Positions 26,978 through 41,854 of a DNA stretch of 41,854 nucleotides are shown one piece after another. The stretch lies in assembly GCA_965225945.1 (NCBI GenBank), contig CBDDBZ010000009.1, positions 1 to 41,854 on the forward strand, written 5' to 3'. The position numbers and the translations under genes were made by a program. Each line of letters begins with the position of its first letter. The first letter of the stretch is position 1. Source of the DNA: Alphaproteobacteria bacterium. Its GTDB lineage: Bacteria; Pseudomonadota; Alphaproteobacteria; GCA-2731375. The notes under the pieces are model-generated. The model was not told the DNA's origin, did no database searches, and worked only from the letters and a program-made list of their open reading frames with translations.

Positions 26978-27436
26978 TCAAACCCGCCCGGCGGCCCAAT
27001 TTCGCCGGATCGCCGCGCATTCCTCGCTCCTGACGCCGGTGACGAGATCCAGCGTCCGTGCCGTCAGCGCCAACAACGTCTCGACCGAATAGCCGCCATA
27101 GTCGGTCCGCTGCAAATCGACGTGGCGGGCGCCGAGGACGAGTTGCGCGACACCGGCTTCCTGCAGCGCCCAGCAGCACATCGGACAGGGTTCCATGGTG
27201 GTGTAGCAAGTGGCACCCGAGAGGTCCGTCGTCTCGCCCTTGGCGCAGGCGTCGCGGATCGCATCGACCTCGGCATGCGCCGTCGGATCGTTTTCGGAGC
27301 GGACCCGGTTTCGGCCGATGCCCAGCACCTCGCCATCGCGCACGATGAGCGAGCCGACGGGGATGTTTCCCGCCGCCTCGCCGACCCGCGCCTCGGCGAG
27401 GCAGCGGTCCATGAAGTCGGTGTGTTTGTCGTTCAT
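26978..27436 (-). CDS. Nucleoside/nucleobase deaminase (TadA/GuaD-like zinc deaminase)
   Basis: PVGSLIV, DPTAHAEV.AIR, TMEPCPMC. Confidence 0.9.
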   Translation of the reverse strand: MNDKHTDFMDRCLAEARVGEAAGNIPVGSLIVRDGEVLGIGRNRVRSENDPTAHAEVDAIRDACAKGETTDLSGATCYTTMEPCPMCCWALQEAGVAQLVLGARHVDLQRTDYGGYSVETLLALTARTLDLVTGVRSEECAAIRRNWAAGRV

Positions 27437-27471
27437 CGTGATCTCCGCTCCCTGGGCCTTTGACGGTAGCA

Positions 27472-27639
27472 TCGATGGGGAAAGCTGCGTAGCCCGTTCG
27501 GCGGCCGGTTTCGATCCGGCCGGGGCGAGCCCCCGTCGCCGCGCGGGCGAGGACGCCATGGCATGGATTCGGCGGAAACGTGAACCGCATCACGGCCGGC
27601 GAGTTCGGAACGATGACGTCGGACCGATCGGAAGGTCGA
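27472..27639. repeat. Non-coding segment upstream of the deaminase, copy A (diverged direct repeat of 29863-30030)
   Basis: Shared blocks tcgatggggaaagc.gcgtagcccgttcggcggccgg.ttcgatccg.ccggggcgagcccc, catggcat.gattcg, accgcatcacggccggcg, ccgatcggaaggtcga. Confidence 0.9.
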
Positions 27640-27765: not shown

Positions 27766-29337
27766 ATGGAAATCGCGTTGACCCCCATGGAATTCGCTCG
27801 GCGTGCGCGCCGGCTCTACGCCGAACGTGAAGCGGTCGTCGATGGAGATTTGCGGTTCACTTACGCCCAGTTCCTGGAACGCTGCGACCGCTGGTCGTCG
27901 GCGCTCCAGGCGCTGGGAGTCGGGCATGGCGATCGGGTCGCCTACATCGCGCCGAACACGCACTCTCATCTAGAGGGGTACTACGCGGTACCCCAAATTG
28001 GCGCGGTGCTGGTGCCCATCAATTATCGGCTGCTGCCGGATGAATTCGAGTACATCATCAACCACTGTGGGGCCAAGATCGTATGCGCTCACGCGGACTA
28101 CATCGACGCCATTGACGGCATTCGGGACAAGCTGGTCGGCGTCGAACATTTCGTGGCGCTGGAAGGCTCGGGAGACGACTGGATCGATTACGAATCGAGG
28201 CTTCGGTCGCATTCGCCCGACTTCGCCGAGATCGAAATCGCCGAGACCGATCTCCTCTCGATCAACTACACGAGCGGAACGACGGCACGGCCCAAGGGGG
28301 TGATGATCACCCACCGCAACGCGTACGTGAACATCATGGGCACCCTTGCCCATCACCACCTGACACCGAGCGATCGATATCTGTGGACCTTGCCGATGTT
28401 TCACGCGAACGGGTGGACCTTCACCTGGATCAACACCGCCCGCGGCATGGCCCACGTCTGCCTTCGGAAAGTGGAACCAGCGCTCATCTTCCAGCTGATC
28501 AAGGACGAGAACATTACGATGTTCTGCGCGGCCCCCACGGTGCTCATCGGCATCGCGAATGCGCCAGAGGAAGTCAGGGCGGGTGCGCCACGTGGTATCC
28601 GCCTGTTTACCGCCGGGGCCCCACCCGCGCCGGCAACAATCGAGCAGGTCGAGCGAGAACTCGGTTGGGAGCTGACTCACGTGTACGGGCTCACCGAGAC
28701 GGCGCCCCTCATCACGATCTGCGAGCCTCGCCCCGAACATCGCAATCTAGCGCTCGAGGAACGAGCCAAGATCAAGTCGCGCCAGGGCGTCGAGCTCGTG
28801 AGCTCCGGGGAGCTTCGGGTCGTCGACGAAGATGGAAACGAGGTCCCACACGACGGGGAATCTCTCGGCGAGATCACGGTGCGGGGCAACGTGGTCATGA
28901 AGGGCTACTACAACGACCCCGAGGCAACGGACGCGGCGATCAAGAACGGCTGGTTCCACTCGGGCGATGCGGCGGTCGTTCACCCCGATGGCTTCGTGGA
29001 AATTCGGGATCGATTCAAAGACGTCATCATCAGCGGCGGCGAGAACATCTCTTCGGTAGAGGTCGAAGGCTGTCTGCTGCGTCACCCGGCAGTGCGGGAA
29101 GTCGCCGTCGTCGGCATGAGCCATGAGAAATGGGGCGAGGCACCCCATGCCTTCGTCATCCTGCGAGATGGTGCCGAAACGAGCGAAGATGAGCTCAAGC
29201 TTCACGTGCGCGACAGCTTGGCCCACTTCAAGACGCCGCAGTGGGTGAGCTTCGTCGACGACCTGCCAAAGACGGCGACGGGTAAGGTACAGAAGTTCGT
29301 ACTGCGGGGCGGCAAAGCCGGCATCGCGCGACAATAG
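27766..29337 (+). CDS. Acyl-CoA synthetase (long-chain fatty acid-CoA ligase family)
   Basis: YTSGTTARPKG, YGLTET, GWFHSGD, DR.KDVIISGGENISS.EVE, LPKTATGKVQK. Confidence 0.95.
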   Translation: MEIALTPMEFARRARRLYAEREAVVDGDLRFTYAQFLERCDRWSSALQALGVGHGDRVAYIAPNTHSHLEGYYAVPQIGAVLVPINYRLLPDEFEYIINHCGAKIVCAHADYIDAIDGIRDKLVGVEHFVALEGSGDDWIDYESRLRSHSPDFAEIEIAETDLLSINYTSGTTARPKGVMITHRNAYVNIMGTLAHHHLTPSDRYLWTLPMFHANGWTFTWINTARGMAHVCLRKVEPALIFQLIKDENITMFCAAPTVLIGIANAPEEVRAGAPRGIRLFTAGAPPAPATIEQVERELGWELTHVYGLTETAPLITICEPRPEHRNLALEERAKIKSRQGVELVSSGELRVVDEDGNEVPHDGESLGEITVRGNVVMKGYYNDPEATDAAIKNGWFHSGDAAVVHPDGFVEIRDRFKDVIISGGENISSVEVEGCLLRHPAVREVAVVGMSHEKWGEAPHAFVILRDGAETSEDELKLHVRDSLAHFKTPQWVSFVDDLPKTATGKVQKFVLRGGKAGIARQ

Positions 29338-29440: not shown

Positions 29441-29689
29441 TCAGGCGGCGGTCTCGGTCCGGGCGCGGCGCGGCACCAGGGTCGCTCCTTCCGGCGGGAT
29501 CTTCAGCATCTCCGGGTCCGCCACCTTGGCAGCCATGAAATGCATCGCCAGGCCCCGGCGCGGCCGCTTCGTCCGGTTGTGGAGCGAGCGGTGCGGTATC
29601 AGGCGGTGATGGATGGAGAGGCCGCCCGCCGGCACCTCCGCCGCCTCTTCCCGGCAGCGGTCCATGAAGCCGGTGTGTTCGTCGTTCAT
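29441..29689 (-). pseudogene. Chimeric 82-aa ORF: deaminase N-terminus fused in frame to a PhyH C-terminus
   Basis: MNDEHTGFMDRC matches MNDKHTDFMDRC (27436). AAEVPAGGLSIHH...HRSLHNRTKRPRRGLAMHFM matches the PhyH C-terminus at 34784-34990. Confidence 0.85.
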
Positions 29690-29724
29690 CGCGATCTCCG
29701 TCCGTCGTATCTTTGATGGTAATA

Positions 29725-29852
29725 CCAAACGGCGATGAGCTCGACTCGTCGCCGTTTGGCAAGCGCGACCGCGCGCCCGAGCTTATGCGAGGAAAAGCCT
29801 GCGTAGCGTTTGAACGCCAGATGAGCGGCAATGAGTTCTACTCATTGCCGCT
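29725..29852. repeat. Pair of related REP-like hairpins
   Basis: ccaaacggcgatgag-ctcga-ctcgtcgccgtttgg (29725-29759) and agcggcaatgag-ttcta-ctcattgccgct (29824-29852). Confidence 0.75.
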
Positions 29853-29862
29853 TGATAAAACG

Positions 29863-30030
29863 TCGATGGGGAAAGCCGCGTAGCCCGTTCGGCGGCCGGA
29901 TTCGATCCGACCGGGGCGAGCCCCCCTCCCCGCGCGAGCGGGGATGCCCATGGCATAGATTCGCCGCAAGCGAAGACCGCATCACGGCCGGCGGGCTCGG
30001 TTCGACGACTCGGGCCGATCGGAAGGTCGA
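29863..30030. repeat. Non-coding segment upstream of the deaminase stub, copy B
   Basis: Diverged direct repeat of 27472-27639. Confidence 0.9.
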
Positions 30031-30133
30031 GCCGAGGCATGGCCGCCGCCGACGCGATCACCTGCAATGTCGTCTATCGGGGGTATAGTCCCCGTCTGGC
30101 CGGGGTGGTCGATTCGGTCATTGATAGCCATAG

Positions 30134-32073
30134 ATCGGGATAGGGGGGCGCCTCGCGGCGCCGCCCCTCCCACACCACCTGGCATACGGGTCACGTACCT
30201 CGGCGGTTCGACCGGGTTAAGCATGGGCAGAGACATGGAGTCTGGGGAGACCGAATGAGTCGAAAGCGTGGTTTCGCAGGGCCATTTGGACCGCCGGGTG
30301 TCCGGACATGCGCCAGAACCCGGTCGGTGAACCGGCTGCGACCGCTGCATTGAACTTTGGGACGCCACGACGGCGCAGTTCCTTGAAGCGGTTTTGCCCG
30401 TTCCGCCATTGCCGCCAAAGATACATTCGTAGTCTTCGGCGGATCCAGGCTTCCAGATGGGTGAGCACGCGGGGGGTCTGGCAGAAACCGAAATAGCCGC
30501 GCCAACCGATCAGGTATGGTGCCAGTTCTTCGATCACCTGCTCGAGGCTGAGCCCCCGTGTCCGGTGGGTGAGGTCCCGGATCCGCGTCTTGAACTTCTT
30601 GAGCGCTTGTGGCGCGATGCGCCGCTCGCTCCCATCGTTCGAGATGCTGAAGCCCAGGAACTTGCGCGCCTCCGGTCGCGCCACCGCACTCTTGGCCTCG
30701 TTGACCTTCAGCCGCAGCTTCTTGGTCAGGAACCGGCTCACCGAGGCCATGACCCGCTGGCCGGCGCGGTGACTGCGAACATAGATGTTGCAGTCATCGG
30801 CATAACGGCAGAAGCGGTGGCCGCGGCGTTCCAGCTCCTTGTCGAGGTCGTCGAGCACGAGATTGCTGAGGAGGGGCGAAAGCGGACCGCCTTGCGGGGT
30901 CCCCTCGTCCACTGGGCTGACCAAGCCGTTTTCCATCACCCCGGCCTTCAAGAAGGCCCGGATAAGCTTGAGCACCCGCTTATCGGACAGCCGCGCGGCG
31001 ACCCGCGCCATCAAGCTGTCGTGGTTCACCCGGTCGAAAAATTTTTCGAGATCGAGATCGACCACGATGCCATAGCCCTCGGCGACATGACGTTGCGCTT
31101 GGGCGACGGCCTGATGGGCGGAGCGCCCCGGACGGAAGCCGTAGCTGTGCTCGGAAAACGTCGAATCCCAACGCGGTTGAAGGACCTGCAACAGGGCTTG
31201 CTGGATCAGTCTGTCGACGACGCAAGGCACGCCGAGCTTTCTGACCCCGCCGTCCGGCTTGGGTATTTCGACCCGTTTGACCGGCTGCGGCTGGTAACTT
31301 CCTTCGAGCAGTTGAGACCGGATGCTTGGCCAGTGTTCACGCAGGTGGTCCCTGGCGTCGTTGATGGTCATACCATCGACGCCGGGACCACCCTTGTTCC
31401 TGCGAACCTGTTTCCAGGCCCTTTCGAGGTTCTCTCGCTCGCACACCACCTCCATCAGTTGCTCTGCCGTGGCCGGGTTTTCGGGCTCTGGCGCCGCCAT
31501 GGGTGGTTCGGCCCCGTGGTGACCGCCGACCGGGGCTTCACCCCGGTCCCTCGGCTCCAGGGCCAGTGAGTACTGGACGTTCCGCCGCTCTCCACTCATG
31601 AGTTGCCAGTCCTACTTGCCTCTCCCGATCGTTCGGGCCTTCGACCATCGTTGCCGGCTCGGCCTATCCGTTGCTCCGCCTTTCGGCCTGGAGTGCCTCA
31701 ATAGCCTTGCCGACGCCATGACCTACTATGCCCTCTGCTGACTCCTGCGCCGCGATCAGGTTGCCTTACGGCTTCCTCAGTTCCGAGATCGGAACACGAC
31801 GCAGGCCTCCCCAGGTAAGTTCGGTCGCCTTCCCCGCAGCCCTGCCGGATCTACAGCCTCGGCCCTTGATGGATATGGACTTCGCGGTTCGTCGCCCGCT
31901 CGTCCGGCCAGGGATGCCTCGTATCCGGTTTCTGTTCGTCAGGTCGCGGTTTTGCTCCACACTGCCTTCGGAAGCCACCTCGCGATGACCCCCTTGTGCT
32001 TCGCTAATCCTTCACCTCCATCAGGTTGGATGGGAGACTTTCACTCCTAAGCTACCGAACATGCTGGGCACAC
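30134..32073 (-). mobile_element. Group II intron, class C (IIC), 1940 nt
   Basis: 5' GTGTG at 32073; domain V gaaccgccg...gacccgtatgccaggtggtgtg and domain VI ending cctatcccgAT at 30134; RT ORF with no endonuclease domain; located just 3' of the stem-loop accgct-gaa-agcggt. Confidence 0.92.
30217..31599 (-). CDS. ltrA: Group II intron reverse transcriptase/maturase
   Basis: NKG.PGVDG, IPKPDGG.R.LG.P...DR.IQQA, DLEKFFD, GTPQGGPLSPLLSN, RYADD, FLGF, GW.GYF X-domain. Confidence 0.95.
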   Translation of the reverse strand: MSGERRNVQYSLALEPRDRGEAPVGGHHGAEPPMAAPEPENPATAEQLMEVVCERENLERAWKQVRRNKGGPGVDGMTINDARDHLREHWPSIRSQLLEGSYQPQPVKRVEIPKPDGGVRKLGVPCVVDRLIQQALLQVLQPRWDSTFSEHSYGFRPGRSAHQAVAQAQRHVAEGYGIVVDLDLEKFFDRVNHDSLMARVAARLSDKRVLKLIRAFLKAGVMENGLVSPVDEGTPQGGPLSPLLSNLVLDDLDKELERRGHRFCRYADDCNIYVRSHRAGQRVMASVSRFLTKKLRLKVNEAKSAVARPEARKFLGFSISNDGSERRIAPQALKKFKTRIRDLTHRTRGLSLEQVIEELAPYLIGWRGYFGFCQTPRVLTHLEAWIRRRLRMYLWRQWRNGQNRFKELRRRGVPKFNAAVAAGSPTGFWRMSGHPAVQMALRNHAFDSFGLPRLHVSAHA

Positions 32074-32194
32074 AACGAAACCGCTTTCAGCGGTAGTTCG
32101 TGGTGCCGGGCGGTGAGGTCGGTGGCGTAACGGATGGGTCGATCCTGTGTTGAGGTTTGGAGTTCCGAACCTCACGCAACACGGGAGCAGACCC

Positions 32195-33100
32195 ATGACC
32201 GATAGTGACAAGACCATCAGCCCGCTGCGCCAGCGCATGATCGACGACATGGTGCTTCGCGGCTTCAGTGCCAACACGCAGCGCGGCTACATCAGTGCGG
32301 TGGCCGGCTTTTCCGACTTTCTCGCACGCTCTCCGGATCGGGCGGAGGCGGAGGATCTCAGGCGCTATCAAGTGCATATGCGCAAAGCAGGCGCATCGGC
32401 GATGACGATGAACGCGGCGGTCTCGGCATTGCGGTTCTTCTTCGGCGTCACGCTCGGCCGAGGCGACGCCGAGATCGGCATGACGACGGTGGCAATGCCG
32501 CGCAAGCTGCCGGTGATCCTGAGCGTCGAGGAAATGGCGCGGCTTCTCGATGCCGCCCCCGGTCCCAAATACAAGGCGGCCTTTTCGCTGGCCTATGGCG
32601 CCGGCCTGCGCGCTTCGGAGGTGGTCCATCTCAAGGTCCCGGACATCGACAGCAACCGCAAGACGCTTCGCATCGAGCAAGGTAAGGGCCGCCGAGATCG
32701 CTACGCCATGCTCTCGGATCGCGCCGTCGAGCAGCTCAGGGTCTGGTGGTTGCTTGGCCGCGCCCGCGGCGTGATGCTGCCCGGCGGTTGGCTGTTTCCA
32801 GGCCAGAACCCGGTCAACCCGTTGACCACCCGCCAGCTCCGTCGCGCCCTCGATGGCGCCAAGGCGGGGGCGGGGATCGAGAAGCGGATCTCGCTTCACA
32901 CGCTGCGCCACTGCTTCGCCACCCATCTCCTCGAACAGGGCGTCGACATCCGCGTGATCCAGGTTCTACTGGGGCACAAGAAGCTGGAGACCACGGCTCA
33001 CTACACCCAGGTCGCCAGCACCACCTTGCGGCGCGCCAAGAGCCCACTGGACCTGCTCGAGCCGCCGACGCCCAAGACCAAGCGCAAGCCGCCGAAGTGA
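32195..33100 (+). CDS. Tyrosine recombinase/integrase (IntI/XerD-like)
   Basis: SAM-like N-terminal domain, YGAGLRASE, GKG.RDR, HTLRHCFATHLLE.G.DIR.IQ.LLGH..LETT..Y. All catalytic R-K-H-R-H-Y residues are present. Confidence 0.95.
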   Translation: MTDSDKTISPLRQRMIDDMVLRGFSANTQRGYISAVAGFSDFLARSPDRAEAEDLRRYQVHMRKAGASAMTMNAAVSALRFFFGVTLGRGDAEIGMTTVAMPRKLPVILSVEEMARLLDAAPGPKYKAAFSLAYGAGLRASEVVHLKVPDIDSNRKTLRIEQGKGRRDRYAMLSDRAVEQLRVWWLLGRARGVMLPGGWLFPGQNPVNPLTTRQLRRALDGAKAGAGIEKRISLHTLRHCFATHLLEQGVDIRVIQVLLGHKKLETTAHYTQVASTTLRRAKSPLDLLEPPTPKTKRKPPK

Positions 33101-33113
33101 GCCGGCGGCCTCG

Positions 33114-34328
33114 GTGCCGCGTCCCGCGCTCGAGGTCCAGGACATCTTCCGCGACCACGGGCCCGGCTTCCGTCGGGCCCGGGCCGGTCGTCTGAGCCTC
33201 GGCCAACTGAAGGTCATGTCGGCGATCGAGTGTTGCCGCACCGCCGCGCTCGGCGGTCATGTCGCGGCCTGCGAGGACTGCGGGCAGAACCACATCGCCT
33301 ACAATTCCTGTCGCAACCGCCATTGTCCCAAATGCCAAGGCCAGGTCGCGCGCGAATGGCTGGCGGCGCGAGAGGCCGAACTGCTCTCCGTCCCCTACTA
33401 CCATCTCGTCTTCACCCTGCCAGCGGCGATCGCCGACATCGCCTATCAGAACAAGTCGGTGATCTACGATATCCTGTTCAAGGCGAGCGCCGAGACCATG
33501 CTCACCATCGCCGCCGATCCCAAGCATCTCGGCGCCAAGATCGGCATCACCGCCGTGCTCCACACCTGGGGCTCGGCCATGACCCACCATCCCCACATCC
33601 ACATGATCGTGCCGGGTGGCGGAATCTCACCTGACGGTAGCAGTTGGATCTCTTGCCGGCCCGGCTTCTTCCTGCCCGTCCGCGTGCTCTCGCGCCTCTT
33701 CCGCCGCCTCTTCATCGAGAAGCTCCTCGCCGCCCACGAGGCAGGGCGCCTGAAGTTCTTCACCGACCACACCAGCCTCGCCGAGCCGGCGGCCTTCCGT
33801 GTCTTCCTCGCACCGATGCGCAAACAAGAATGGGTCGTCTACGCCAAGCCGCCCTTCGGCGGACCAGAGGCCGTGCTCGCCTATCTCTCCCGCTACACCC
33901 ACCGTGTCGCCATCTCGAACAGCCGCCTGGTCAGCTGCGACAGCCAAGGCGTCATCTTCAAGTACAAGGACTACCGGCGCAAAGGACGCGAGCGCTACAA
34001 GACCTTGCCCCTGGCCGTGCCCGAGTTCATCCGCCGCTTCCTCCTCCATGTCCTGCCCTCGGGCTTTCACCGCATCCGCCATTACGGCCTCTTCGCCAAC
34101 GGCGGTCGCACCCGCAACATCTCCCTTGCCCGCGAACTGCTTGCCATGCCGGCACCGGAGAGTGAGGCCGACGATGCCGCGAGTGACGATGATACCGAAC
34201 CGCCGTCCCTCTCAGAGCCCTGCCCGCAGTGCGGCGGCCGTATGATCGTCATCGAGCGCTTCGAGGCCGGCGCCCAACCACGCGCCCCGCCCCGTGCACG
34301 GCCCCTGGCCAGGGCCACGGCAGCATGA
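33114..34328 (+). CDS. IS91-family rolling-circle (HUH, Y2) transposase with Zn-binding domain
   Basis: CRTAALGGH...C..C, YNSCRNRHCPKCQ, H.VFTLP, LHTWG, HPHIH (HUH), YLSRY (Y2), FHRIRHYGL. Confidence 0.95.
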   Translation: MPRPALEVQDIFRDHGPGFRRARAGRLSLGQLKVMSAIECCRTAALGGHVAACEDCGQNHIAYNSCRNRHCPKCQGQVAREWLAAREAELLSVPYYHLVFTLPAAIADIAYQNKSVIYDILFKASAETMLTIAADPKHLGAKIGITAVLHTWGSAMTHHPHIHMIVPGGGISPDGSSWISCRPGFFLPVRVLSRLFRRLFIEKLLAAHEAGRLKFFTDHTSLAEPAAFRVFLAPMRKQEWVVYAKPPFGGPEAVLAYLSRYTHRVAISNSRLVSCDSQGVIFKYKDYRRKGRERYKTLPLAVPEFIRRFLLHVLPSGFHRIRHYGLFANGGRTRNISLARELLAMPAPESEADDAASDDDTEPPSLSEPCPQCGGRMIVIERFEAGAQPRAPPRARPLARATAA

Positions 34329-34600
34329 CCGACACCGCTTCGAATAACGCTATTGCCGCCGCTCACCCGCGGCCACGATCCCGCTCGCCGCAACACCATC
34401 GAGCGCGCAGGGAACCACCTGCGAGACCCGCCGGCATCGACCCGAAGTCGCCATCAAACCACCCTGCCGGTGTCGTCGCCAATCAGATCCGAGCCATCCA
34501 GCAGCGCCGGCCACCCGAGAAAGCTGGCCCGCCGCTCGCAAATCCCCATAGACCGAGCGTGCCGCACCGCCGAGCCTAGTCCTGCCCGCGGTTTCCTCCC

Positions 34601-34679
34601 TTAAGCGTTGTCCGACACCTGCCGATCCAGTCCGCCGGATGCAACCCCTGCGCCTCGGCAGGTGTCCGACAACGCTTAA
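34601..34679. repeat. Terminal long hairpin of the recombinase-IS91 element
   Basis: ttaagcgttgtccgacacctgccga (34601-34625) pairs with tcggcaggtgtccgacaacgcttaa (34655-34679): 25 bp with one central C:C mismatch and a 29-nt loop. Confidence 0.9.
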
Positions 34680-34683
34680 CACA

Positions 34684-34722
34684 ATCTGTTTGTATCATCT
34701 GTTTGTATCATCTGTTTGTATC
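34684..34722. repeat. Perfect 13-bp tandem repeat x3 (atctgtttgtatc)
   Basis: Three exact adjacent copies beginning 4 nt after the element's inferred right end. Confidence 0.95.
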
Positions 34723-34783
34723 GACTAATATTATGGCAAATCCCGAGGGTGCTCCGGACATCGCGACCACGTCCGGGCGTCGT

Positions 34784-35594
34784 TCAGCCCGCTCCCTCGG
34801 TCCGGGCGCGGCGCAGCACCGGGGTCGCGCCCTCCGGCAGAAGCTTCAGCATCTCCGGGTCCGCCACCTTGGCATCCATGAAGTGCATCGCCAGGCCCCG
34901 GCGTGGCCGGTCGGTCCGGTTGTGCAACGAGCGGTGCGGCATCAGGCAGTGATGGATGGCGAGGCCGCCCGCCGGCACCTCCGCCGCCACGGCGCCCGTC
35001 TCGTCGAGTTCGGGAATGGCGAAATAGAAACCCTTCTTGACCGAGCTGTGGCGAGGCCGCCCGCCGGCACCCAGAAATAGAAACCCTTCTTGACCGAGCT
35101 GTCCCAGAGTTGTGCGCCATCCGCGCACCGTGTCGGCCCGGCAGGTACCACATGCAGCCGTTCGCAATCGTTGCGTCGTCGAGCGCCATCCAGACACTGA
35201 CGGTGCGCTCGCCCGCGACGTTGAAATAATAGTTGTCCTGGTGCCAGCCGACGGCGCCGCCGGTCGCCGCCGGCTTGTAGAGGCCCTGGTAGTGGATCAG
35301 GCGGATATCCGGTCCGATCAGGCATTCCACCAGGTCCAGCAGGCGAGAATCGTTGATCAGCATGCGGAAAATCGGGTGGCGGAGATGCGCCGTGCGAATC
35401 TGATAGACCTGGAAATCCTCGTCCCGATCGCCGCCCGACTGCACATTCTCGAGCGCCTGCTCGGCCTGCAGCCGAGCTGCGATCTCCGTGTAGCAGTCGC
35501 GGAGGTGCGCGATCTCCTCGGCCTCCAAAAATCCCTTCGAGAGCAGATAGCCCTCTCGCCGGAAATGCTCGAGCTGATCCTGGGCGAGCCGCAT
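34784..35594 (-). pseudogene. Phytanoyl-CoA dioxygenase (PhyH) family protein, frameshifted
   Basis: F.REGYL, KPA..GGAVGWHQD, W.ALDDAT..NGCM..LPG.H, HRS..NRTD.PRR. The coding sequence is spread over three frames by a slip near 35113 and an internal duplication at 35049-35102. Confidence 0.88.
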
Positions 35595-39965: not shown

Positions 39966-40123
39966 ATTCTACGGCTGCGGCTTCATGCGTTTCAGGGCAA
40001 CGAACGAAACCGCTTTCAGCGGTAGTTCGTGGTGCCGGGCGGTGAGGTCGGTGGCGTAACGGATGGGTCGATCCTGTGTTGAGGTTTGGAGTTCCGAAGC
40101 TCACGCAACACGGGAGCAGACCC

Positions 40124-41029
40124 ATGACCGATAGTGACAAGACCATCAGCCCGCTGCGCCAGCGCATGATCGACGACATGGTGCTTCGCGGCTTCAGTGC
40201 CAACACGCAGCGCGGCTACATCAGTGCGGTGGCCGGCTTTTCCGACTTTCTCGCACGCTCTCCGGATCGGGCGGAGGCGGAGGATCTCAGGCGCTATCAA
40301 GTGCATATGCGCAAAGCAGGCGCATCGGCGACGACGATGAACGCGGCGGTCTCGGCATTGCGGTTCTTCTTCGGCGTCACGCTCGGCCGAGGCGACGCCG
40401 AGATCGGCATGACGACGGTGGCAATGCCGCGCAAGCTGCCGGTGATCCTGAGCGTCGAGGAAATGGCGCGGCTTCTCGATGCCGCCCCCGGTCCCAAATA
40501 CAAGGCGGCCTTTTCGCTGGCCTATGGCGCCGGCCTGCGCGCTTCGGAGGTGGTCCATCTCAAGGTCCCGGACATCGACAGCAACCGCAAGACGCTTCGC
40601 ATCGAGCAAGGTAAGGGCCGCCGAGATCGCTACGCCATGCTCTCGGATCGCGCCGTCGAGCAGCTCAGGGTCTGGTGGTTGCTTGGCCGCGCCCGCGGCG
40701 TGATGCTGCCCGGCGGTTGGCTGTTTCCAGGCCAGAACCCGGTCAACCCGTTGACCACCCGCCAGCTCCGTCGCGCCCTCGATGGCGCCAAGGCGGGGGC
40801 GGGGATCGAGAAGCGGATCTCGCTTCACACGCTGCGCCACTGCTTCGCCACCCATCTCCTCGAACAGGGCGTCGACATCCGCGTGATCCAGGTTCTACTG
40901 GGGCACAAGAAGCTGGAGACCACGGCTCACTACACCCAGGTCGCCAGCACCACCTTGCGGCGCGCCAAGAGCCCACTGGACCTGCTCGAGCCGCCGACGC
41001 CCAAGACCAAGGGCAAGCCGCCGAAGTGA
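40124..41029 (+). CDS. Tyrosine recombinase/integrase, copy 2
   Basis: Same protein as 32195-33100 except M>T (ASAM/TTMN) and R>G (KTKR/GKPPK). Confidence 0.95.
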   Translation: MTDSDKTISPLRQRMIDDMVLRGFSANTQRGYISAVAGFSDFLARSPDRAEAEDLRRYQVHMRKAGASATTMNAAVSALRFFFGVTLGRGDAEIGMTTVAMPRKLPVILSVEEMARLLDAAPGPKYKAAFSLAYGAGLRASEVVHLKVPDIDSNRKTLRIEQGKGRRDRYAMLSDRAVEQLRVWWLLGRARGVMLPGGWLFPGQNPVNPLTTRQLRRALDGAKAGAGIEKRISLHTLRHCFATHLLEQGVDIRVIQVLLGHKKLETTAHYTQVASTTLRRAKSPLDLLEPPTPKTKGKPPK

Positions 41030-41042
41030 GCCGGCGGCCTCG

Positions 41043-41759
41043 GTGCCGCGTCCCGCGCTCGAGGTCCAGGACATCTTCCGCGACCACGGGCCCGGCTTCC
41101 GTCGGGCCCGGGCCGGTCGTCTGAGCCTCGGCCAACTGAAGGTCATGTCGGCGATCGAGTGTTGCCGCACCGCCGCGCTCGGCGGTCATGTCGCGGCCTG
41201 CGAGGACTGCGGGCAGAACCACATCGCCTACAATTCCTGTCGCAACCGCCATTGTCCCAAATGCCAAGGCCAGGTCGCGCGCGAATGGCTGGCGGCGCGA
41301 GAGGCCGAACTGCTCTCCGTCCCCTACTACCATCTCGTCTTCACCCTGCCAGCGGCGATCGCCGACATCGCCTATCAGAACAAGTCGGTGATCTACGATA
41401 TCCTGTTCAAGGCGAGCGCCGAGACCATGCTCACCATCGCCGCCGATCCCAAGCATCTCGGCGCCAAGATCGGCATCACCGCCGTGCTCCACACCTGGGG
41501 CTCGGCCATGACCCACCATCCCCACATCCACATGATCGTGCCGGGTGGCGGAATCTCACCTGACGGTAGCAGTTGGATCTCTTGCCGGCCCGGCTTCTTC
41601 CTGCCCGTCCGCGTGCTCTCGCGCCTCTTCCGCCGCCTCTTCATCGAGAAGCTCCTCGCCGCCCACGAGGCAGGGCGCCTGAAGTTCTTCACCGACCACA
41701 CCAGCCTCGCCGAGCCGGCGGCCTTCCGTGTCTTCCTCGCACCGATGCGCAAACAAGAA
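41043..41759 (+). pseudogene. IS91-family transposase, copy 2, interrupted before the Y2 motif
   Basis: Matches copy 1 up to APMRKQE, then reads into foreign sequence (stop at 41795). Confidence 0.9.
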
Positions 41760-41854
41760 CCTGATTACGCACTTTACTCAGCCGGATTAATGTGATACAA
41801 ATCGTGAACATTTGGTGGTTTTACAGGAGATTCACGATGCCACGCAACAAGGTT
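41760..41854 (+). mobile_element. Left end of a second IS1595-family IS (continues beyond the window)
   Basis: Begins CCTGATT at the breakpoint; AT-rich leader; AGGAG RBS and ATG 41837 giving MPRNKV, similar to M.RNKVQFQ.G transposase N-termini. Confidence 0.7.

Follow-up and report, generated by a model that had tools for sequence, protein, structure and literature searches.

A group IIC intron at the terminal hairpin of a recombinase-bearing IS91-family element

We describe here a class C (IIC) group II intron located precisely at the left end of a mobile element with genes for a tyrosine recombinase and an IS91-type transposase, an observation confirmed by comparing occupied and empty copies of that end. 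The reading that we favour, with a probability of roughly 0.85, is that the intron retrohomed into the bottom strand at the left terminus of the element. The window under study is a stretch of 41,854 nucleotides of an alphaproteobacterial genome (contig CBDDBZ010000009.1), and all positions given below refer to it unless a contig is named. The first-pass annotation had proposed that the intron homes to the terminal hairpin of the element, and this core idea holds, the same site recurring in distant bacteria; since relatives in those bacteria occupy the same spot, the intron lineage appears to be specialised for this hairpin.

The intron, its boundaries and its class

The intron is 1940 nt long and lies on the minus strand of the window (Table 1), starting with GUGUG at 32073 and ending with ...CCCGAU at 30134; a flanking G (30133) borders it on one side and base 1 of the element (32074) on the other. 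Deletion of 30134-32073 joins ...gccataG to AACgaaaccgc..., which has the same form as the left end of a second copy of the element (...ggcaacG/AACgaaaccgc at 40002/40003, the slash marking the junction), base 32074 of copy 1 being in register with base 40003 of copy 2 according to the repeat finder. None of the shifted intron boundaries recreates the empty-site sequence, and this junction comparison shows the boundaries originally claimed, 30134 and 32073, to be exact. The sequence at the junction also agrees with the site as it had been described on the intron strand, a stem-loop followed by ttcgtt/c. What did not stand was the placing of the intron inside a terminal GAAC of the element: the G is the invariant last base of the flank (20/20 in this genome, and also in two other genomes) and is more likely the end of the target than part of the element, which puts the intron at the element/flank junction and not within the element.

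Table 1. Positions of the intron, its parts and the element copies in the window
Feature	Position	Strand	Basis
Complete group IIC (bacterial class C) intron	30134..32073	-	Occupied versus empty site; Rfam group-II-D1D4-3 126.3 bits, D1D4-1 38.5 bits
Intron-encoded protein, 460 aa, RT and maturase (X), no endonuclease domain	30217..31599	-	Pfam, solved relatives
Domain I core, full length of the Rfam D1D4-3 model	31819..31989	-	Rfam
Domain V, 34 nt, CGC at triad position, 2-nt bulge	30174..30207	-	Alignment of 67 intron 3' ends
Domain VI hairpin, bulged A (30141) 8 nt from 3' splice site	30137..30171	-	Fold and alignment
EBS1 GACGAA (intron 181-186), loop of GCGG/CCGC stem	31888..31893	-	Alignment of relatives
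EBS3 G (intron 223, in GUAGAU), partner of first 3'-exon base C	31851	-	Best-covarying column
IBS1 UUCGUU, complement of the first six bases of the element	32074..32079	-	Pairing with EBS1
IBS3, C on intron strand, complement of the invariant flank G	30133	-	Flank comparison, covariation
5'-exon hairpin ACCGCU-GAA-AGCGGU, terminal hairpin of the left end of the element	32080..32094	-	DNA fold
Left flank, belongs to a dispersed repeat family (about 66 nt) often found beside the element	30065..30133	+	blastn
Element copy 1, 2608 bp; recombinase 32147-33100, transposase 33114-34328	32074..34681	+	Pfam; ends from genome copies
Element copy 2, unoccupied left end (site 40002/40003)	40003..41759	+	Repeat finder, blastn

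As a ribozyme, the intron combines the group II domains with GUGYG...AY ends (here GUGUG and GAU). Domains V and VI, for which the Rfam model RF00029 gave no match in 30000-32200 (E up to 1), were assigned by our own reading of the alignment of 67 intron 3' ends; domain VI shows compensatory changes across the relatives, and domain V has at its triad position the CGC that marks IIC introns. In the same interval a snoRNA match of 28.4 bits, below the gathering score of 40, was taken as chance, and a scan of 31900-32700 found no promoter-like site around the 5' exon. The only Pfam domains in the intron-encoded protein are RVT_1 (residues 112-319, E 8e-42) and GIIM (333-412, E 1e-22), and scores against solved structures group it with class C proteins: 490 bits with the GsI-IIC RT (6ar1, E 6e-146), 364 with 7uim (E 1e-107) and 297 with 5hhl, versus 142 with the IIB protein 6me0 (E 2e-40) and 129 with the IIA protein LtrA (E 2e-36). 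Rfam, Pfam and the best solved relatives, which are IIC, therefore all support the initial assignment to a class C intron without an endonuclease domain.

Copies of the element and of the intron in the genome

The element carries a tyrosine recombinase (Pfam Phage_integrase and SAM_4) and a transposase with Y2_Tnp (E 6e-68) and Zn_Tnp_IS91 (E 4e-32), that is, the HUH Y2 nuclease and N-terminal zinc-binding domain of the IS91 family. It resembles IS91, IS801 and IS1294 in these domains and also in its ends, which differ from one another and have subterminal palindromes (a 24-bp inverted repeat at the right end, the terminal hairpin at the left), with a short specific target flank at one end only. 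Some IS91-family members bear an integrase-like gene.

With an identity cutoff of 90%, blastn located 22 left ends starting at element base 1 across all 39 contigs of the genome (6.27 Mb). Twenty of them are uninterrupted, all preceded by G within a left flank of the form ..CAwmG, and the right flanks are mutually unrelated. The two occupied ends, one in the window (C9:32074) and one at C38:212485, each have the intron's 5' end before them. Copy 2 of the window, in which an insertion of the IS1595 family breaks the element at base 1757, had been regarded as an unoccupied target, and rightly so: its hairpin, IBS1 and IBS3 are identical, and 19 other ends are such targets too. The same genome holds a second element subfamily with an end that would not pair with EBS1, and all four of its copies are unoccupied. 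The repeat to which the flank of copy 1 belongs has 16 further matches over 10 contigs (blastn) and flanks 3 other left ends.

Four intron 3' ends are present in the genome (contigs C9, C38, C39 and C36), with the last 30 nt common to all, and they lead into four different 3' flanks (ctatggc.., cgttggc.., cgttgac.. and ctatggc..) that are the reverse complements of the usual left flank of the element (..gyCAwmG). Judged by these flanks, the four copies probably represent independent insertions. One of the four is whole. The two copies beyond those at the occupied left ends are truncated, with 3' flanks resembling other element targets; the C36 copy is a 47-nt remnant.

These copies bear on the idea that the intron is a passenger in a composite, spread by transposition of the element or by read-through. 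The intron does abut the element at both complete 5' junctions, and IS91-family elements are described as carrying adjacent DNA along by one-ended transposition (PMC13181058). However, 20 of the 22 element copies have no intron, no two intron copies have a 3' flank in common, and among relatives intron and element vary independently of each other, some intron copies lying in tandem behind another intron. In addition, the sequence beyond the 3' end of the intron is the normal target flank of the element, including the G, which means that a pre-existing element/flank junction was split. We therefore find the passenger explanation scarcely credible and retain retrohoming into element ends that were already in place.

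A separate matter is whether the window copy is a dead relic, neither mobile nor splicing-competent, which we consider possible though doubtful. Its domain V has a G x A mismatch beside the bulge where the relatives have G-C, three of the four genome copies are broken and 20 targets have been left empty; against this, the ORF is unbroken and can be aligned from end to end with those of relatives, and the intron copies are 99.6-100% identical to each other. The C36 remnant begins with the same A, so the domain V variant was present while the intron was still spreading.

In the public sequence data, one contig of run X1 joins 30133 to 32074 with only 20 letters on its short side, and it is uninformative for the window locus because the flank ..agccatag also occurs at other empty ends. 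Most of the intron is covered by contigs of the RNA libraries X12 and X16, one of which bridges the 5' junction, with DNA carry-over a possible source; these contigs give no sign of splicing. Loose contig ends fall at 30133 in X8 and X12.

Recognition of the element end and its recurrence in relatives

The exon-binding sites were located by covariation across relatives. The pairing of EBS1 with the exon end, suggested by the first-pass annotation, is present in the window (6/6 pairs) and general among the relatives: at least 3 consecutive pairs are formed at 60 of 69 junctions (19.1 on average and 27 at most in 1000 shuffles of the exons), with matched EBS1/exon pairs such as GACUGA/UCAGUC and GACGUA/UACGUC. 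In 45 of 49 introns the EBS3 base is the complement of exon base +1. EBS1 thus appears, from these alignments, to track the terminal bases of diverged elements in other genomes and phyla. Since EBS1 pairs with the last six bases of the element and EBS3 with the flank position, the insertion point is the exact element/flank junction, and any copy of the element, wherever it is placed, offers the full target. The 5'-exon hairpin ends 6 nt from the insertion site and is predicted to fold as DNA at -10.6 kcal/mol (z -3.5; none of 200 shuffles folded as well), so that insertion occurs, as is usual for IIC introns, a few bases 3' of a DNA hairpin with short EBS1-IBS1 and EBS3-IBS3 pairings.

Of 546 relatives found, the loci of 80 were surveyed and 72 junctions could be read. 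A recombinase gene on the opposite strand lies 72-162 nt upstream of 20 of these junctions, 13 of which also have an IS91 transposase; 12 more have an end-like motif with no recombinase match nearby (7 of the 12 with more than 1.7 kb of upstream sequence), and 32 follow an ordinary terminator-like hairpin, mostly with T runs. Automatic sorting of the 5' exons left 20 junctions as 'other', which were then reassigned by eye, and tandem status was settled by Rfam for those introns that sit behind another intron. In other genomes the intron accounts exactly for the difference between occupied and empty ends, the bases before the junction being ..gattG and ..gtt[at]G; in one genome (G001) two ends starting with AACTAAG are also empty. 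The recombinases of the elements at this recurring site are only 28-60% identical.

On the RT tree, end-associated introns fall into two well-supported clades, drawn from Alpha- and Betaproteobacteria and Acidobacteriota: the clade of the window, with 10 rows (support 100/100), and a second one with 22 rows. All ten members of the former are end-associated (8 by a recombinase match, 1 by the motif only and 1 in tandem behind an end-sited copy), so that, as the first-pass annotation would have it, the close relatives lie at recombinase-IS91 ends and not mostly at terminators. End association needs two state changes on this tree, and monophyly of the end-associated introns is rejected (AU test, p 0.027), which implies a history of two shifts, or of a single one plus a loss. 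The tree covers the intron protein of the window and those of its relatives; it leaves out five junctions with ORFs shorter than 380 aa (L063, L075, L097, L100 and L102) and those with less than 1700 nt of sequence after the start, and rows L048_287 and L074_1624 (interrupted intron, wrong ORF) were removed from the careful version.

Ordinary IIC behaviour, in which any hairpin is taken and this end is met simply through the abundance of the element, would require no specialisation. IIC introns have been described as relying on structure over sequence (PMC7306698), nearly half of the relatives' junctions follow ordinary hairpins, and this genome has 22 element ends. Yet every readable junction of this genome is a site of the same kind (5' junctions 2/2; 3' flanks 4/4 element-target-like), the clade of the window is uniformly end-associated, the site is shared by elements with widely diverged recombinases, and EBS1 follows the terminal bases of the element, with ends that would not pair left empty. 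We regard this explanation as very improbable and keep to a lineage specialised for the element end.

How such an end is read is a finer question. The specificity could be real and due to pairing alone, through the six IBS1 bases and IBS3, with the hairpin serving the element and going unread by the intron. EBS1 pairing reaches 6 bp in 14 of the 69 junctions, several of them at element ends, with just 3 pairs in 29, and the stems of the end hairpins are short (4-6 bp, versus 8-13 bp at terminator sites). In contrast, every end-associated junction has its hairpin at a constant 6-7 nt from the site, as do terminator-associated relatives, and some end-associated introns (such as L047 and L076) pair with only 3 exon bases, which is insufficient to define a site. 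Hairpin reading and pairing alone are inseparable by sequence, since the element conserves its hairpin regardless; we nevertheless judge pairing alone unlikely and prefer joint recognition of hairpin and pairing bases.

Proposed mechanism and comparison with known systems

Retrohoming at the element end would proceed as in other IIC introns, through recognition of the DNA hairpin together with the short IBS1 and IBS3 pairings, reverse splicing into a transiently single-stranded target, and reverse transcription primed from a growing DNA strand. The end may also be exposed as folded ssDNA, as the first-pass annotation suggested. Analogy with IS91 would make the occupied end the initiation (ori-like) one, since on the top strand the conserved flank of the target is found 5' of it, and our reading of flank conservation suggests that the strand entered by the intron is the complement of the one transferred by the transposase. 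In IS91, a tetranucleotide adjoining oriIS is reported to be essential and abuts oriIS downstream of tnpA (PMC13181058), whereas here the conserved flank is upstream of the genes, so that gene orientation relative to ori and ter seems reversed. Since the intron takes the place of flank bases required beside oriIS in IS91, the occupied copy has probably been disabled as a donor and not turned to read-through; by the same analogy, blocked initiation would be more likely than failed termination, and we saw no sign of read-through mobilisation.

We put forward more tentatively, and with little confidence, a stronger version in which IIC introns have a third target class, next to terminators and attC, inserting at the very phosphodiester cut by an IS91-type transposase at its initiation end. 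A transposase nick on the opposite strand would leave a flank 3'-OH, paired to the 3' exon and adjoining the inserted intron RNA, and the endonuclease-less intron would thereby borrow its RT primer from the element that it invades. By replacing the initiation flank bases, it would silence the copy as a donor and act as a hyperparasite of a rolling-circle transposon. The lineage as such, apart from this stronger version, is a natural system that could reveal how introns without an endonuclease find single-stranded or nicked DNA, and whether they exploit the nuclease of another element or restrain that element. It would also pinpoint where a little-studied branch of the IS91 family, one that bears a recombinase, is cut and which of its hairpins is functional.

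The intron shows likenesses and differences with three known systems: (i) Group IIC-attC introns such as S.ma.I2, whose insertion is strand-specific and opposite to the neighbouring genes, are likewise a sublineage of IIC introns that has specialised on a folded recombination site belonging to a different mobile system (PMC3001079); here too, the intron is antisense to the genes of the element, at a hairpin that serves the enzymes of that element. The target, however, is an IS91-family terminal hairpin at an element/flank junction, with neither an attC site nor a cassette array, in a 2608-bp element and not an integron cassette, and at least two clades are involved versus one. (ii) Terminator-targeting IIC introns such as B.h.I1 and GsI-IIC share with it the ORF class, the ribozyme parts, the hairpin-adjacent site and the use of EBS1 and EBS3, but here there is no T run, the short hairpin belongs to a transposon end, the pairing with IBS1 reaches up to 6 bp and is conserved across genomes, and the site is defined by sequence like a homing site. 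(iii) Introns such as E.c.I4, in IS3-family genes, and RmInt1, in ISRm2011-2, also use a multicopy insertion sequence as homing site, with an occupancy reported to vary by genome (PMC3522654). These are introns of other classes, inserted in the sense orientation within the transposase gene and spliced from its mRNA, whereas the present one is antisense and outside any gene, at the presumed point of DNA cleavage of the element.

We found no report of IIC introns at IS91-type ends in the literature searched, although survey tables outside that literature may list such sites; one survey of intron neighbourhoods describes class C introns as 'without biased flanking features' (PMC7306698). Three target specificities have been listed for bacterial group II introns, namely homing sites, terminators and attC (Zimmerly and Semper 2015, PMC4424553). 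The list would grow to four with a IIC lineage dedicated to one transposon family's end, and such a lineage would show sequence-defined homing inside a class thought mainly to read structure. The intron is of a known kind, and its target class is new relative to the literature searched.

The intron and the ends that it occupies

The right-hand neighbour of the intron is a 2608-bp element (window 32074-34681), of which a second copy begins at 40003. The element carries genes for a tyrosine recombinase and for a transposase of the IS91 type (Y2_Tnp, Zn_Tnp_IS91). In the window's own genome (39 contigs, numbered C..) blastn located 22 left ends starting at element base 1. Twenty of them are uninterrupted and in all 20 the base before the element is a G, within the loose flank consensus ..g-y-C-A-w-m-G; the two remaining ends, in the window and at C38:212485, are preceded by the intron 5' end. 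The right ends all terminate in ...CTTAACA, with unrelated bases beyond. Comparison of occupied with empty left ends confirms that the intron sits at the element's left end and that the limits proposed in the first-pass annotation, 30134 and 32073, are exact. That annotation had also placed the insertion inside a terminal GAAC of the element: the position was right, but the G behaves as the target's final base and not as a base of the element.

This genome contains four copies of the intron: the whole one in the window, one on C38 that a 750-bp insertion interrupts, one on C39 without its first 821 nt, and on C36 a remnant of 47 nt. Across the 30 nt compared, the four 3' ends do not differ. 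The sequences that follow them (ctatggctatc.., cgttggctagc.., cgttgaccc.. and ctatggctaaa..) differ, and all are reverse complements of typical element left flanks, G included; therefore, on at least four occasions the intron has divided a junction of flank and element that was already in place.

The assignment to class C was borne out. The intron matches two domain I-IV families of Rfam, group-II-D1D4-3 (126.3 bits, full model length) and D1D4-1 (38.5 bits), and its protein carries only RVT_1 and GIIM. The solved structures closest to this protein are IIC, namely the GsI-IIC RT 6ar1 (E 6e-146, full length), 7uim and 5hhl/5hhj, with the IIB protein of 6me0 (E 2e-40) and the IIA protein LtrA (E 2e-36) scoring far below. 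The Rfam domain V/VI model had no match in the intron, so both domains were assigned from the 3'-end alignment. Within the final 74 nt, domain V spans 34 nt and has CGC where the triad is expected, besides a G.U pair and a bulge of 2 nt; domain VI is a hairpin whose bulged A lies 8 nt before the 3' end. Across 67 aligned intron 3' ends there are compensatory changes in the distal stem and basal pair of domain VI; beside the domain V bulge, a pair that is G-C in the relatives is mismatched (G x A) in the window's intron.

Features located in the window and elsewhere in its genome (G000; C.., contigs)
Feature	Location	Strand	Remarks
Group II intron	window 32073 to 30134	-	1940 nt; starts GUGUGCCCAGCAUG, ends CCCCCCUAUCCCGAU
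Intron-encoded ORF	window 30217-31599	-	460 aa; sole long ORF; Pfam RVT_1 + GIIM, no other domain
Second-subfamily element copies (n=4)	C38:248500-248660, C35:324958-325120, C26:9330-9500, C38:270260-270430		no intron in any
group-II-D1D4-6 arrays	C38:557219-561045, C37:375807-377752, C31:260915-264742		loci L014, L018
IS1595-family insertion	window 41760-41854 (in copy 2), C38:214242-215271		at least 9 other copies
Dispersed repeat, other members	C29:162735-162798, C34:8748-8807, others
Right-terminal 368-bp repeats	C38:202868-203234, C39:252595-253299, C31:11146-11440

Site recognition and the relatives of the intron

Read along the intron strand, the 5' exon finishes with a hairpin, ACCGCU-GAA-AGCGGU (as DNA, fold -10.6 kcal/mol, z -3.5), followed by UUCGUU. 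The guide bases EBS1 were sought by aligning the 5'-terminal 300 nt of the intron and of its relatives. A loop closed by GCGG/CCGC (intron 181-186, GACGAA) covaries, intron by intron, with the final 5'-exon bases, matched pairs among relatives including AACGAA/TTCGTT, GACTGA/TCAGTC, GACGTA/TACGTC, TACT../..AGTA, ATA../..TAT and CAA../..TTG. At least three consecutive pairs from exon position -1 are present at 60 of 69 junctions, compared with a mean of 19.1 and a maximum of 27 in 1000 shuffles in which exons were exchanged among introns. Likewise, a scan of all alignment columns found that position 223, in GUA[G/A]AU, is complementary to the first 3'-exon base in 45/49, being G with exons starting C and A with exons starting T. 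The predicted EBS1 and EBS3 are thus fixed by covariation. In the window the proposed pairing of EBS1 with the exon end extends to 6/6 positions, with a G.U at -1, and position 223 is a G opposite C. All of the recognised sequence lies within the element save one base, the invariant flank G.

Is this association peculiar to one genome? An RT search, with one genome per species, found 546 relatives, and in the best 80 of these we placed 72 intron 5' junctions, the final part of their sorting into types being done by eye: (i) at 20 junctions the opposite strand encodes a recombinase homologue (28-60% identical to the window's) at 72-162 nt upstream, followed in 13 by an IS91 transposase; (ii) 12 more have a similar short hairpin and a ..TTCGTT-like tail with no recombinase match near, three of them with less than 700 nt of upstream sequence, one with a transposase at 297 nt and one with an intervening insertion; (iii) 32 lie behind longer hairpins, mostly with T runs, resembling ordinary terminators; (iv) six are in tandem behind another intron copy; and (v) two are uninformative. 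Introns of the end-associated type occur in, among other hosts, Mesorhizobium (plasmid and chromosomes), Bradyrhizobium, a betaproteobacterial MAG and many Acidobacteriota MAGs.

Empty ends were sought in the genomes of two relatives, and in both the intron is the exact difference between occupied and empty ends. The first (G001) has two occupied and three empty ends (..gattG|AAC..). In the second (G002), one element subfamily has two occupied and one empty, another has one of each, and a third, with a different first base, has no occupied end among the 7 copies shown (..gtt[at]G|). The window's genome also holds a second subfamily, ~75% identical (left end CACTAAATCGC..), with target flanks of the same kind (..CCATAG, ..CAAGG); its end is predicted not to pair with EBS1, and all four copies are empty.

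A maximum-likelihood RT tree was built from 63 rows, after removal of two with wrongly picked ORFs and leaving out junctions with an ORF below 380 aa or too little sequence past the start. The end-associated introns form two clades, one of 10 rows that includes the window (100/100 support, sister terminator-associated) and one of 22 rows (100% SH-aLRT in a quick tree). Two changes between the end- and terminator-associated states are needed on the tree. A single end-associated clade was rejected by the AU test (p 0.027), which is an indication only, the group having been defined post hoc from a tree. Every row of the window's clade is end-associated; its close relatives do not sit mostly at ordinary terminators. 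The relatives' junctions thus support, well beyond a single locus, the interpretation that the hairpin end of the element is the intron's homing site.

Probable strand polarity and predicted effect of insertion

HUH transposases remain bound to the 5' end of the moved strand and join it to the 3'-OH of the cut target, a chemistry by which conserved target bases should precede the element, on its 5' side, in the strand that is transferred. Here the conserved flank, which resembles the CAAG of IS91, is on the left side of the top strand, and the element has two palindromes at its left end and a large one at its right end. Taken together, these features make it likely that the left end is the initiation end and that the top strand is transferred. 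The genes would then be inverted relative to IS91 proper, for which one account (PMC13181058) describes a terIS upstream of the genes, an oriIS downstream adjoined by an essential, specific tetranucleotide, and a bottom-strand circle as active intermediate.

If the top strand is transferred, the intron would enter its complement, and the target would not be the transposition intermediate itself. A transposase nick would fall exactly opposite the insertion point and, speculatively, could prime reverse transcription. Beside the candidate initiation end the intron puts ..GCACAC in place of ..CAwmG, a replacement that, by analogy with IS91, should stop an occupied copy from acting as donor rather than cause the read-through suggested by the first-pass annotation; the flanks of the four intron 3' ends in the window's genome hold no trace of intron and flank having moved together.

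Neighbouring repeats and comparison with known introns

The last ~66 nt of the left flank (window 30065-30133) are a member of a dispersed repeat, for which 10 contigs yield 16 further matches. The repeat includes a small hairpin, GGGGTATAGTCCCC, and its end reads ..AGCCAwAG. Several element copies of both subfamilies sit exactly at its end, so it seems to be a preferred target of the element. Immediately past complete right ends there are tandem repeats, up to three, of the element's right-terminal 368 bp (bases 2241-2608), linked by 3 variable bases; rolling-circle termination errors or the recombinase could have produced them. Short tandem repeats of a ..CTGTTTGTAT.. unit follow two right ends (window 34682-34800, C26:84021-84140). 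About half of the element copies are cut at base 1757 by an IS1595-family insertion (1031 bp, DDE_Tnp_IS1595 E 2e-34), with bases 1750-1757 duplicated on either side. The 750-bp insertion in the second intron copy (C38:210008-210757), which interrupts that copy at intron base 1727, looks non-coding, has terminal inverted repeats of ~40 nt and a repeat of GTTCAATGC on both flanks, and is probably a MITE. Upstream of the intron, 27389-27617 and 29642-30009 are mutual repeats (80-91% identity; repeat finder families D3-D5), one downstream and one upstream of an AMP-binding enzyme gene (27766-29337). The genome also holds another family of group II introns, distinct from that of the window's intron (Rfam group-II-D1D4-6, 163.7 bits). 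Its members are arrayed head to tail with a repeat length of 1881 bp, in three units on C38 and on C31 and in two on C37; tandem copies also occur among relatives of the window's intron (loci L047, L053, L059, L064 and L094).

In the literature searched we found no paper linking IIC introns to IS91-family ends, although an earlier mention may exist. One review distinguishes three target specificities for bacterial group II introns, namely homing sites, terminator motifs and attC sites (Zimmerly and Semper 2015, PMC4424553). The attC introns are described, in another paper, as a monophyletic IIC subset that enters the bottom strand and runs against the adjacent genes (PMC3001079), and a survey of 863 bacterial introns gives class C no biased flanking features and no more than a slight preference for mobile elements (PMC7306698). 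Set beside these, the intron is of a known kind with a new, sequence-defined class of target.
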